61,023 nt of DNA from the IMG/VR virus record IMGVR_UViG_2740892440_000003. The stretch is one strand, 5' to 3'. Source of the stretch: a virus (Duplodnaviria > Heunggongvirae > Uroviricota > Caudoviricetes). The notes beneath the pieces were generated by a model. The model was not told the origin of the DNA. It ran no database searches and worked only from the letters and a program-made list of their open reading frames with translations. The position numbers and the translations under genes are program-made. Below are positions 2,581-55,552 of the stretch, piece by piece (position 1 is the first letter of the stretch; the number at the start of each line of letters is the position of its first letter).

Positions 2581-3222
2581 TTATAGATAATTTCCGTTTC
2601 CTGTTAATACTCCCTTAGGCACTTGTTTTTGCGCCAGTGTTTGAGTGCCGCGAATTATGTTAATCAGAGGACTTAGTAACGATGATTCCTGGCGGGCATC
2701 AACTTCCTCTGCCATTGCCCTGATGTAGTCTGCGCTTGCAACGTTGTTGTATTCCGTTGCGAAGCAGCATAACAACGTCAGAACATGCTCTGTCGTTATT
2801 TCACTCCAGTTGATGTTGAAAAACTCATCGCCTTTTTTATCGTGTTCGGAATCGAAGATGCTTTGGTGGAGGATGTATTTGCCGGATTCCTTGCGCGGTA
2901 ACTTGATCGCTTTCTGGCGTTCCAACTCCTTGTAAATCTGCATTGCTTCAATTAGTACCGGCCTGCCGTTCATGAAGGGATCACGCAACCTTACACGCTG
3001 GCCAACTCGACCGGTAATAAAGCTGTTTTCCTCTTCCACCAGCACGATAAAACCCTTTTCCTCTTTTTCTCGCAATTCGCGCAGCAGCTGGAGTTCCATA
3101 TCGCGGCGGCGTTCAGGGTAGCTGGTCCGCTCAGCCATTATCAGCTCATTGTTGATCCATGCAGCAGTCATTGACGCCGGTTTGCCGACGCTCATTGAAA
3201 CAACGCATATTTTCTTATCCAT
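2581..3222 (-). CDS. hypothetical protein immediately upstream of and co-oriented with the SIR2 gene (operon partner, or an equivalent of P1 mat)
   Basis: ATG at 3222 (the track ORF begins at an upstream GTG, 3249); 213 aa; 56-bp gap to the SIR2 start. Contains a deviant P-loop-like VSMSVGKP and an acidic hhhhEEE stretch (FIVLVEEEN). No confident family assignment. Confidence 0.5.
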   Translation of the reverse strand: MDKKICVVSMSVGKPASMTAAWINNELIMAERTSYPERRRDMELQLLRELREKEEKGFIVLVEEENSFITGRVGQRVRLRDPFMNGRPVLIEAMQIYKELERQKAIKLPRKESGKYILHQSIFDSEHDKKGDEFFNINWSEITTEHVLTLLCCFATEYNNVASADYIRAMAEEVDARQESSLLSPLINIIRGTQTLAQKQVPKGVLTGNGNYL

Positions 3223-6301: not shown

Positions 6302-6719
6302 TTAACACTCAGATGATGGTTTTAAGTAAAGTGTACAGGATCGGCTCTGCCTTTACCTGTTTATGGTTCTCGTCATAGAAACGCCAGCGACCGCGCGTGC
6401 GTTCTATTTTCTCTTCACCGCGCGATAATGACAGTTGGCAACTATCACGATCAAACCCTTTTGCCCGCCAGTAACCACGGTTTTTCTCAAGCTCAAGATG
6501 AGTGGACACTTTAGCAGTTGAATATCCCATTTTTCACCTCTGATTGGTTGGTGGTGCTAAGTGCGCTACGCGAAATCTGTAGGACTAACACCGCCAACTT
6601 TGCACAGATTTTACGTAGCGCAACCTTGATCAAATGATCAAGTGATCACTATTTGACCTGCTAAAGTATTGAACTGTATGGATTTACAGGTAAATTGATC
6701 ATATTCAATAACCCTTAAT

Positions 6720-6753
6720 ATAACTTCGTATAATGTATGCTATACGAAGTTAT
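6720..6753. other. loxP: loxP recombination site
   Basis: Exact 34-bp match ATAACTTCGTATA-ATGTATGC-TATACGAAGTTAT (13-bp inverted repeats around the 8-bp spacer), about 420 bp upstream of the cre start, as in P1. Confidence 0.97.
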
Positions 6754-6796
6754 CAGGTCCGAAGAGGAGTTTACGTCCAGCTGCGCACAAAAATCA

Positions 6797-6896: not shown

Positions 6897-7134
6897 TAGT
6901 TTTGCCGCCGTTACGTAATACGACTTTGGATTCACTATTTAATGTGTCTTCAGCGTTGTAGAGCGGCTCAGAAGGAAATGAGCAAACAGGGAAACCTTAT
7001 ACAACGGCATTACAGCTATGCATTGCTCATCTTACACACAGCGCAATGTTGTTAGATTACCCCAGCATGGATCATGGGTGAAACAGTAGGTCAGAGCTTC
7101 AGGCTCTGTGTTGTCAATACAGTGAGGCATAATT

Positions 7135-7344
7135 ATGGCTTTCATTCAACCAACCATCGACGACGTTAGACATTGCTCTAACGCTTTATCTGTAGACCCT
7201 GCCGAAACCGACGCTGCCCGCGCCATTGCTGAACACTACTCAAAGATATCCAATCAGGAGTACCGCATCACCCAAGACGACCTGGATGACCTCACTGACA
7301 CAATCGAATATCTCATGGCAACTAACCAGTTAGACTCACAATAA
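7135..7344 (+). CDS. coi: Coi, C1 inactivator
   Basis: 69-aa ORF immediately upstream of c1, same size and position as P1 coi. Confidence 0.75.
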   Translation: MAFIQPTIDDVRHCSNALSVDPAETDAARAIAEHYSKISNQEYRITQDDLDDLTDTIEYLMATNQLDSQ

Positions 7345-53671: not shown

Positions 53672-54215
53672 GAGTCATCCCTTGTATTTTAAAGCTCCTT
53701 CGGGAGCTTTTTTGTGCTTAAATCATGTCAATATAGCGAAATTTTGAGCATATTATGGAAATTGATTTTTCATACTCTCCTGAAACGATAGAACGAAGAT
53801 TCGAAATAATTGGATGCAAAACTATTTCCGAGGAGCATTATTGGATTCTCTATGATGCCAATACATGGTTATGTGCTTAGCAGAATGTCAGCCATCGTTA
53901 TGTGTAGGGGAGGGGGCTTTTCGACATAAGGTGCTGGCTACACTTGAAGTGAACACGTTACGATATTGGTGTGTAGAAATACTTAGTGATAACAAAGAAT
54001 TGCACTTATTATTGCTGAATAAGTGTGCTTCTCTGCGCAGAAAAGCATGAAAAAACCCAACCGCTCTCCCGGAATTATCAGAAGAATATGTGCGGAAAGT
54101 TATAGCTAGCTATTGAAAAGCTAAAGTAGATCGGTTAGATTTGCATTACTCATCTACCATGTGTAGAAAGAGCGATCGAACCCGATACATAGCAATATGT
54201 GTCGGGTTCAGCTTT

Positions 54216-54695
54216 TTATGTCCCAAATGCTCTTTTTCTGCTTTGTTTGAGTGTTCTGATTTTACTGTCATAGGTTACAACATAGGCTGTTTTGAGAAGC
54301 CAATAGTCTCTACGTGCGGATAGCACAACAACGTAGTTTTCACACTCATTCCAGATTACCCACTCTTCAGTTGGTCCTCGTCTTTCAGACCAACATGATA
54401 TATCGCAATGGTTATAATTCCTTATCATGTGCGCGATCCAGCGAATTCGCTTGCACCGTTCAAGATCGGGTATACGTTCTTCTTCTATTTTTCCCTCTGA
54501 TACTAAATGCCAAAATCCGAATTCTTTCCCATTATATTCCGGTGAATAACGTAATCGAACAGGGAGACCCTTAAACGTTATATTAGATATTAAAATATCT
54601 TCTCTAACAACATCATATACATCGTCTATATACTCTTGCCAACTTCCATTGAAGTACAATAAATCTGGCATTTGAAGCATCAGCGAGCCTCCCAC
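54216..54695 (-). CDS. hypothetical protein (159 aa), second gene of an AT-rich two-gene module
   Basis: Overlaps the upstream gene by 16 nt; Cys/His-containing (CKRIRW...HCDISCW). Confidence 0.4.
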   Translation of the reverse strand: MGGSLMLQMPDLLYFNGSWQEYIDDVYDVVREDILISNITFKGLPVRLRYSPEYNGKEFGFWHLVSEGKIEEERIPDLERCKRIRWIAHMIRNYNHCDISCWSERRGPTEEWVIWNECENYVVVLSARRDYWLLKTAYVVTYDSKIRTLKQSRKRAFGT

Positions 54696-55384
54696 ACAAA
54701 AATATTAAATTTACTTTCTGTTGGAAGAGTGCTTTTTAGTAACTCCCTGTTTGTATGTGATTTTATCCTGTTTATGACTTGGATTTTTCCCGCGTTGCTA
54801 TTCATTCCTCGATGAACGTAGCCTAACGCGCCAATGAAAAGATCCGTTAGCTGCAATTGCTGCACTTCATGAGATCGTATATGTTGAATTCTGTTTATCG
54901 ACTCATGATTGTAATCATAGCGATCATTGTGAAGAACCCCTCTTAATTTCTCAATTTTTTCAATACCTAAAGTATCTTTTATATCTAGGTAGATATTGTA
55001 TGTGTTGTTACTTTCTATTATGTTTTTTAAGACATAAAAAAACATCTTATAATAGAAAGTATTATGATCTTGATGGAATCGAGCATGGTCCAGTTGCTCT
55101 TTATCAGGAACAACAACACCTCTAAAGCGCAATGCAGGGTTGCTGAAGAAGTAATCTACGACATCTAAGTAAAATTCAACTTTGGACGCAGATACTTTAG
55201 TCCACTTGATTTCGAAATCAGGTTTTAGATTGTGTTTTAATTTTAATTCCTTGATGTCTCTAGCAATTTTTTTTGTGATAGTGCCGGGACACCAAAGCGC
55301 ACCCAATACCATGACTTTATTATGATCATTTAGTAGGTGACAGGATTCATCGCAGAATACATTAAATGTTCTTCGGTTCAACAT
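54680..55384 (-). CDS. hypothetical protein (234 aa) with an N-terminal CDES motif
   Basis: N-terminal FNVFCDESCHLL; AT-rich codon usage distinct from the flanking structural and replication genes. Confidence 0.4.
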   Translation of the reverse strand: MLNRRTFNVFCDESCHLLNDHNKVMVLGALWCPGTITKKIARDIKELKLKHNLKPDFEIKWTKVSASKVEFYLDVVDYFFSNPALRFRGVVVPDKEQLDHARFHQDHNTFYYKMFFYVLKNIIESNNTYNIYLDIKDTLGIEKIEKLRGVLHNDRYDYNHESINRIQHIRSHEVQQLQLTDLFIGALGYVHRGMNSNAGKIQVINRIKSHTNRELLKSTLPTESKFNIFVWEAR

Positions 55385-55552
55385 GTTAACTCCACTTATT
55401 GTTAGGTAGAATTGTCCGTTAGTTGTTTATTAATTGCAATAATGGGGCGTCCAGTTTTGGCAACAGTGTCCTCTTACCAGGACACCTATGAGTTTGCCTC
55501 ATGGCAAACTAGAGGTGTTGAAAGTATGCATGGTTATAATTAGAGCAATTCA

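Follow-up and report, generated by a model that had tools for sequence, protein, structure and literature searches.

Between the structural block and the repL gene of a 61,023-nucleotide Caudoviricetes record (IMG/VR IMGVR_UViG_2740892440_000003; "the window" below means this whole stretch of DNA, as analysed) lie two overlapping minus-strand genes at 54216-55384, and the question that this locus raises is what such a compact, AT-rich pair is for. Judged by sequence, the genes are P1's own rlfA and rlfB. We find that they are accompanied by a third component, a small RNA gene convergent with rlfB that also occurs on its own in phage tRNA arrays, and we propose that the three parts together may form a conflict system.

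Megablast against phage records aligns 2.9 kb of the locus to P1 (NC_005856, 50624-53525) at 99.1% DNA identity. The two RlfA proteins do not differ (100% identity), and RlfB matches at 153 of 154 residues (99.4%), the sole change being L152F; the other three substitutions in the module are synonymous. The P1 gene order bplB-pmgF-rlfB-rlfA-repL-kilA is kept, and the P7 record names the same genes rapA and rapB. An earlier, sequence-only reading of this DNA had suggested from position that the pair could be equivalents of P1 rlfA/rlfB and had called for that comparison, which shows the guess to be right and, if anything, understated. It had also named orthology to P1 backbone genes with a known non-defence role as the outcome that would speak against it; the orthologues are instead non-backbone genes without a known role.

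A six-frame list of open reading frames (ORFs) confirms both genes where that reading had placed them. The rlfA ORF occupies 54680-55384 on the minus strand (234 amino acids (aa), start MLNRRTFNVFCDESCH), and its ATG is preceded by GGAG, 7 nucleotides (nt) upstream. The longest rlfB frame (54216-54695, minus strand) opens with a GTG and would encode 159 aa, the length first reported, but the ATG at 54680 is most likely the better start, giving a 154-aa protein from 54216-54680 on the minus strand. This choice is based on a GGGAGG Shine-Dalgarno sequence 7 nt upstream of the ATG, on the P1 record and the PHROG profile, which both begin there, and on the resulting TGATG overlap with the rlfA stop, whose TGA shares its A with the start codon. 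The GTG of the longer frame sits within the Shine-Dalgarno sequence itself. The low G+C content also holds up: the module has 0.364, against 0.467 for the window, which places it in the lowest 1% of 1169-bp windows and below both repL (0.453) and bplB (0.475). The pair lies, as described, between bplB/pmgF and repL.

The sequence-only reading took the locus for a two-gene operon. The coupled pair stands, but a third component was missed. Downstream of rlfB, P1 shares with, among others, Nitrospiraceae and Dehalococcoidia a stretch of 24-26 nt without a single difference; in the window it reads GCTCTTTCTACACATGGTAGATGAGT (minus strand, 54173-54148) and is a single exact site. It belongs to a previously unannotated small RNA gene of about 70 nt (54147-54218, plus strand) that converges on rlfB. 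The gene comprises a 5' hairpin, P2 (54148-54173, plus strand, ACUCAUCUACCAUGUGUAGAAAGAGC), and an intrinsic terminator hairpin (54178-54209, plus strand), after which comes a U tract overlapping the rlfB stop codon. A promoter scan places a sigma-70-type promoter at 54113-54141 on the plus strand, with a -35 element TTGAAA (54113-54118), a 17-nt spacer and a -10 element TAGATT (54136-54141). The 73-nt RNA has a folding z of -6.5.

For comparison, a one-genome-per-species scan matched more than 546 species, from which the best 80 loci were kept; these span Proteobacteria, Bacteroidota, Nitrospirota, Chloroflexota, Desulfobacterota, Acidobacteriota, Planctomycetota and Cyanobacteria. An RNA alignment, a two-helix structure and a covariance model were built. 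The model matches the window with 50.4 bits (E = 2.6e-15) and finds exactly one match per module in 84 of the 84 sources that have sequence downstream of rlfB, with no match elsewhere in 1.24 Mb, nor in three P1-like loci without rlfAB. The covariation score, 0.240, was reached by 0 of 500 shuffles, whose mean was 0.100, and slid controls gave at most 0.110. One covarying pair is UA in 41 cases, AU in 15, CG in 9 and GC in 4; another is CG in 67 and UA in 12. The loop of the conserved hairpin takes extra hairpin insertions in about ten loci. Across phyla, the nucleotide conservation of the RNA exceeds that of its protein partners.

The RNA gene lies on the strand opposite rlfAB, as four lines of evidence indicate. 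One is a wobble asymmetry: on the rlfB strand, A.C cells, each a G.U on the opposite strand, are more numerous than G.U cells, both in modules (122 versus 26) and in orphan copies of the RNA (75 versus 17). The promoter is conserved upstream of the RNA in 80 loci, across many phyla, as TTGACt at about -37 to -32 and TAtAaT at -14 to -9, followed by tAG and then CUCAUC. The downstream hairpin is variable and GC-rich and is followed by a U tract, and is therefore read as an intrinsic terminator. Finally, orphan copies are co-oriented with neighbouring tRNA genes. On these same observations, a 3'-untranslated-region element on the rlfB strand is rejected. In other loci the terminator starts between -52 and +26 nt relative to the rlfB stop, so that rlfB and the RNA are transcribed towards each other, in units whose 3' ends overlap. 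Two viral loci have the RNA gene in the reverse orientation with respect to rlfAB, an argument for a gene that is independent and acts in trans. That the hairpin sequence is almost perfectly conserved suggests that a conserved partner recognises it sequence-specifically. The GGAG in the hairpin, taken with the RegB/RelE-like fold of RlfB, is a lead only as to who that partner might be.

The RNA matches no family that we searched. Rfam returned nothing at E ≤ 10 on a 201-nt region, at E ≤ 5 on 4 kb or at the gathering score in 20 loci; none of its eleven DUF3800-associated motifs matches, and a full-text literature search for the RNA sequence found nothing. Several identities were also considered and set aside. 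A hammerhead-like core (CUGAUGA / CGAAAC) differs at an invariant position and has no Rfam match; an integron attC site and a boxA/nut site were considered by eye. Also by eye, a mimic of 16S rRNA helix 45 plus the anti-Shine-Dalgarno sequence would share only a CUCCUU hexamer, an anticodon-loop mimic fits poorly with a loop of 5 nt that tolerates insertions, and no conserved mini-ORF was seen in the RNA. ARAGORN calls neighbouring tRNAs in 40 loci and never the element itself, which disposes of a tRNA or tmRNA identity.

The RNA is found far beyond the module. The exact core pattern occurs in 117 IMG/VR contigs, only about 21 of which have rlfAB beside it, leaving approximately 95 orphan copies in 70 distinct contexts. 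When 73 orphan loci, comprising at least one representative of each context, were searched together with SPβ and a Vibrio phage, all matched the whole model, at 32-66 bits (76 matches in 75 sources). Many orphans sit inside phage tRNA arrays, directly before or after a tRNA gene: tRNA genes are present in 25 of 40 orphan loci scanned, a sample partly chosen by eye, with up to 37 in 12 kb, and the orphan RNA is co-oriented with its tRNA neighbours in 24 of 24 cases. Among annotated phages, orphans occur at unannotated sites in SPβ, phi3T and Goe11-14, where they occupy the yonN-yonK gap, and in two Vibrio phages. The SPβ copy (NC_001884; L206, locus 3001-3110, about 59.55-59.66 kb of the record) lies in this gap, and in the SPβ family a second related unit follows (CTCATGTACCATGATGTACAAGGAG plus a terminator) to form a tandem pair, an arrangement also seen in L112, L118, L141, L177, L188 and L197; L097 has two model matches. 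Such tandem units are confined to some of the orphan phage copies, and the RNA of the module is single-copy.

What, then, are the two proteins? RlfA matches the Pfam family DUF3800 (PF12686) over residues 8-189 with 54.2 bits (cutoff 21) and has more than 5000 relatives, 50-65% identical across phyla. Its modelled structure has an RNase H fold in which a putative catalytic tetrad, D12, E13, D134 and D181, follows the RNase HII order (DE...D...D). These carboxylates are at least 97% conserved among 78 sequences, and D12-E13 corresponds to the invariant N-terminal DE motif. The best structural matches are RNase HII and HIII, not transposases, and RlfA has no Pfam, NCBIfam or PDB sequence match to the RNase HII/HIII families. 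RlfA is accordingly described as a protein predicted to work like an RNase H2-type nuclease and not as a member of that family. Reports of DUF3800 proteins in type VII retrons and beside Cas12a2, Cas12a3 and Cas13 are consistent with this assignment.

RlfB is harder to place. The family counts 1780 representatives at 50% identity, and neither RlfB alone nor profiles of 25 or 84 members gave a Pfam, NCBIfam or PDB sequence match. The model is confident (pLDDT 92) and has a beta-alpha-alpha-beta4-alpha topology. A Foldseek search against PDB gave nothing significant, and the weak resemblance to RelE/colicin D (BECR) RNases suggested by the model is tentative. H58 and R75 are invariant and R69, F56, W97 and T131 nearly so. 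Database names are of little help: relatives of RlfB are called "oxidoreductase" at NCBI (P0122, P0127, P0128, P0130, P0136), RlfB itself is a "replication protein" in PHROG 16230 and RefSeq (YP_006520), one UniRef entry names a Desulforamulus copy "Phage P1-related protein", and rlfB is often left uncalled by PGAP. No domain match supports any of these names, and neither "replication protein" nor "oxidoreductase" has a basis other than position.

The two proteins travel together. A homologue of RlfB lies directly downstream of RlfA on the same strand in 80 of 80 loci, and stop and start codons overlap in 64 of 77, as ATGA in 28 and as the P1-like 1-nt overlap in 15; the pair is therefore obligate and translationally coupled. 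In five loci (L018, L056, L064, L085 and L086), as well as in two plasmid or genome records, rlfB is frameshifted, interrupted or truncated while rlfA is intact, and RlfB thus looks like the costly partner. In one of these, L056 from Desulfobacterales (regions 7088-7151 and about 6650-6770), an insertion of approximately 100 nt interrupts rlfB and a long insertion occupies the hairpin loop of the small RNA, which scores only 14.5 bits; here the trio as a whole may be in decay. A contig labelled as a Legionella sp. metagenome-assembled genome (L072) encodes an RlfB 100% identical to a Desulforamulus profundi protein, and may be mis-binned or recently transferred.

The genomic surroundings of the module point toward defence. 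In PADLOC, RlfA is matched by the profile PDC-M04A (E = 1e-95) and RlfB by PDC-M04B (E = 4e-52), the two genes being adjacent and overlapping; PDC systems were predicted from their embedding in BREX, DISARM and type I restriction-modification (R-M) loci (Payne et al., 2024; bioRxiv 10.1101/2024.01.29.577857). Neighbours were counted in the 40 loci flanked by 4 kb or more on both sides. HsdM, HsdS or HsdR lies nearby in 18 of these, the module typically abutting the hsdS end, and type III mod/res genes lie beside or around it in about 8; further neighbours include AIPR, GmrSD, KwaB, nSTAND3, a PLD-SNF2 helicase and a Zeta toxin. On Escherichia coli chromosomes, a 67%-identical pair directly follows the integrase of a guaA-adjacent mobilisable island. 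This island (L083-L086, 8736-20702) reads integrase, rlfA-like, rlfB-like, small RNA, AlpA, RepA_C, relaxase and TrbL, and then carries either a 1900-aa NACHT protein or a DEAD helicase; in two of its four copies a 7-nt insertion frameshifts rlfB while rlfA is identical.

In P1-like elements the module occupies a slot whose contents are exchanged. Homology to elements without rlfAB ends at 53713, just past the bplB terminator hairpin, and restarts at 55539, 14 nt past the repL stop, and these breakpoints define an exchangeable cassette of 1.8 kb at 53714-55538. G+C content is 0.31-0.42 across the whole cassette, which contains pmgF, the small RNA gene, rlfB, rlfA and the rlfA leader. Its right-hand breakpoint falls inside the C1 repressor operator Orlf/Op55 (55534-55550, minus strand, ATTGCUCUAAUUAUAAC), after ATTGCTCTAAT; the operator lies directly past the repL stop, and its annotation is transferred from P1 at 99% identity. 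A total of 680 plasmid records match the bplB-repL region, and rlfAB is found in 98-101 of them (approximately 15%). The commonest alternative content is a Hok/Gef toxin gene with an 81-aa ORF, and in other elements a 198-aa ORF or Ail/Lom fills the slot. Of 5426 complete E. coli genomes, 121 contain the P1-type module, nearly always on a plasmid. Published data agree: rlfA-rlfB-pmgF are listed as replaced in pSvP1 and pTZ20_1P (PMC6906374), and knock-down by CRISPR interference (CRISPRi) leaves P1 plating unchanged, with an efficiency of plating of 1.3 for rlfA and 0.88 for rlfB (PMC10695390). Precise breakpoints, low occupancy and dispensability for plaque formation make it well supported that rlfAB is accessory cargo and not backbone, as the sequence-only reading had surmised. 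Its further suggestion of a role in defence or exclusion is strongly supported by association, through the PDC-M04 match and the R-M and island context.

The rest of the cassette adds two observations. The leader (55385-55538, minus strand) travels with the module and contains a weak predicted promoter, PrlfA, at about 55411-55440; the slightly longer segment 55385-55552 (minus strand) folds better than its shuffles (z = -3.5), forming an 8-bp hairpin (AGUUUGCC/GGCAAACU) and a helix that pairs the rlfA Shine-Dalgarno sequence. On the other side, pmgF (53755-54050, plus strand) is convergent with rlfB and is broken by a 1-nt deletion at about 53875, so that compared with the P1 reference its frame runs for 41 aa and is then out of phase. 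Based on its position inside the swap cassette, pmgF is probably cargo rather than a morphogenetic gene. Neither it nor the proteins of the alternative cassettes, Hok excepted, has a Pfam or PADLOC match.

Taking these data together, we propose, with a probability of about one half, that rlfA, rlfB and the small RNA constitute a toxin- or abortive-infection-type conflict system equal to PDC-M04. The three parts are strictly co-inherited and form a self-contained, horizontally mobile cassette, carried here in the P1 swap slot. In the mechanism that we envisage, RlfB would be a growth-arresting RNase effector, and RlfA, the small RNA or both would restrain RlfB or determine what it acts on. This activity would be released when another phage infects or when the element is lost, and the orphan RNAs in phage tRNA arrays would supply an antidote in trans. 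It is also possible, although here we would sooner bet against the idea than for it, that the ~70-nt RNA represents a new family serving as the sequence-specific antidote or specificity factor of RlfA-RlfB, from which SPβ, Vibrio phages and many phages with tRNA arrays captured orphans as counter-defence, in some cases as tandem copies transcribed together with their tRNAs. The defence phenotype, the identity of the toxic partner, the binding target of the RNA and the counter-defence role of the orphans are all points that we infer.

Several observations weigh against this proposal. PDC-M04 is itself an untested two-protein prediction, and PDC systems in general are expressly listed as unvalidated. 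In P1, rlfA is separated from repL by a C1 operator and has only a weak predicted promoter, so that rlfAB may be mainly a lytic-phase unit, a poor fit with standing defence of a lysogen. RlfA evolves more slowly than RlfB (mean pairwise identity 58% versus 40%), and the faster change that RlfB shows is not the usual signature of an effector or toxin, which is slow evolution. Because an intact RlfA was the bait by which the loci were found, the excess of broken rlfB genes is a biased observation. An external lead in favour of a toxic RlfB comes from Legionella pneumophila, where transposon sequencing found an integrase-adjacent, strain-specific DUF3800 gene to be essential and the gene downstream of it non-essential (HL77S_00078-00080; PMC7811196), as would be seen if the DUF3800 protein kept a toxic downstream product in check; a search for members of the rlfAB subfamily, however, returned none from L. 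pneumophila, and this gene is at most a candidate member. Finally, no model that we tried explains the conservation of the hairpin.

Other functions deserve weighing against the conflict system. A plasmid-addiction toxin-antitoxin (TA) module that stabilises the P1 prophage-plasmid or its carrier element, with no anti-phage role, is rather unlikely but is the rival that we take most seriously. It would account for a small, overlapping and translationally coupled pair whose rlfB partner is the one found broken, for a convergent small RNA with its 3' end over the rlfB stop as in 3'-overlapping type I systems, for the integrases of mobile islands next to the module, and for a slot whose commonest alternative occupant is a type I toxin gene of the Hok/Gef kind. 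It accounts less well for the roughly two-thirds of chromosomal copies that lie inside R-M operons and not on plasmids, for orphan RNAs in the tRNA arrays of lytic-type phages, which make more sense as counter-defence, and for P1, which already has phd/doc; addiction and abortive infection are, moreover, not mutually exclusive. A function that serves the phage during lytic growth, expressed with kilA-repL once C1 repression is lifted, such as countering RNA-based host defences, host shut-off or exclusion of co-infecting phages, seems less probable again. Op55 lies directly upstream, the genes are co-oriented with kilA-repL, rlfA and rlfB are reported to be induced with early replication genes in P1vir infection, and the RNA family occurs in many phages without rlfAB. 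Most family members, however, belong to R-M operons of bacterial chromosomes and have no phage nearby, and the pair is dispensable for plaque formation and absent from 85% of P1-like elements.

We consider it very improbable that the genes assist lytic replication from oriL, as the original annotation has it, for instance by RNase H-type processing of an origin-activating transcript. Adjacency to and co-orientation with repL/oriL, the RNase H-type fold of RlfA with intact catalytic residues and the "replication protein" label in RefSeq and PHROG all invite this idea, but the label traces back to the position just mentioned, and P1-derived cloning vectors use repL without rlfAB. The idea is contradicted by unchanged plating on knock-down, by the absence of rlfAB from about 85% of P1-like plasmids with the same repL, and by homologous trios in unrelated, non-replicon contexts in many phyla. 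Equally hard to credit, and marginally more so, is a selfish mobile cassette in which the hairpin is a DNA site for recombination or transposition (attC-like or a transposon end) and RlfA the recombinase. Insertion directly after hsdS, often with zero intergenic space, the precise swap junctions in P1, the inclusion of transposases among RNase H-like folds and the strand-specificity of the hairpin are the grounds for it. A conserved sigma-70 promoter and a U-tract terminator mark the element as a gene, though, and the G.U asymmetry indicates pairing in RNA; these features contradict a recombination site. In addition, the loop tolerates hairpin insertions, the element is present at one end only, with no inverted partner upstream of rlfA, the structural matches of RlfA are not to transposases, and orphan copies sit in tRNA arrays.

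Some of this was already known, namely the genes as P1 rlfA/rlfB and as PDC-M04, and a general link between DUF3800 proteins and noncoding RNA. What appears new is the equation of the P1 genes with PDC-M04, the definition of the swap cassette and the structural assignments and, most importantly, the finding that a conserved small RNA gene, which has orphans in phage tRNA arrays, is an integral third component. In the literature searched, we found no functional study of rlfA/rlfB, PDC-M04 or DUF3800, no paper linking PDC-M04 to P1 rlfAB, and none describing the RNA component. For two decades rlfA and rlfB have stood in the P1 genome as "possibly associated with lytic replication"; that label is now removed, the pair is tied to a widespread untested defence candidate, both proteins are given a structural identity, and the unit is seen to have three parts. 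The orphan RNAs in phage tRNA clusters, including that of SPβ, suggest a testable relation of defence and counter-defence, and P1, E. coli and Bacillus subtilis, being fully tractable, put every step within reach of a direct test. Work on the module would also open a first functional route into the large family of DUF3800 proteins, found repeatedly in retrons and next to Cas12a2, Cas12a3 and Cas13. If the reading of the orphans as counter-defence is true, it would reveal an RNA arms race across many phyla like that of ToxI and pseudo-ToxI, with the P1 genes as its type example.

How does the module compare with known systems? ToxIN, a type III TA system, is similar in the proposed logic only: an endoribonuclease checked by a structured RNA, and phages that carry copies of that RNA. 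In ToxIN, however, toxN is preceded on the same strand by ToxI, an array of tandem repeats that ToxN processes, whereas here a single, convergent, downstream RNA gene has its own promoter and accompanies two proteins, an arrangement that is not that of a type III system. The type I systems bsrG/SR4, yonT/SR6 and txpA/RatA share the convergent small RNA with a terminator overlapping the 3' end of the protein gene, and the RNA described here is also found in SPβ-type prophages. Type I toxins, however, are short hydrophobic peptides and RlfB is a soluble-looking protein of 154 aa; the sequence of the RNA is kept across phyla, which cis-antisense pairing would not need, and its orientation is flipped in two loci. 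A type II system is not suggested either, since neither RlfA nor RlfB has a recognisable DNA-binding antitoxin domain and RlfA, at 234 aa, enzyme-like and highly conserved, is unlike a small labile antitoxin.

The anticodon nucleases PrrC and RloC of type I R-M loci are also small nuclease modules inserted between hsd genes, where they provide what rlfAB might plausibly provide as well, an RNA-targeting back-up defence, and the orphan RNAs in phage tRNA clusters hint at a possible link to tRNA biology. There is, however, no kinship of sequence or fold, PrrC being an ABC-ATPase plus nuclease, and no sign that R-M proteins silence rlfAB. Because the module is also found far from R-M genes, in P1 and in integrase-adjacent islands, it is probably autonomous, unlike PrrC/RloC. 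A close counterpart is PDC-M04, both of whose profiles are matched and whose embedding in type I R-M operons is independently reproduced here; it was described as two proteins, and no paper searched mentions the RNA component. DUF3800 proteins that accompany the noncoding RNA motifs DUF3800-I to -XI (Weinberg et al., 2017; PMC5737381) share with the module a Pfam domain, the DE motif and an RNase H2-like fold, together with a nearby structured RNA that has its own Rho-independent terminator and may lie in either orientation. The RlfA subfamily differs from them in always having RlfB as a protein partner too, and its RNA in occurring also without a DUF3800 gene nearby, in the tRNA arrays of phages.

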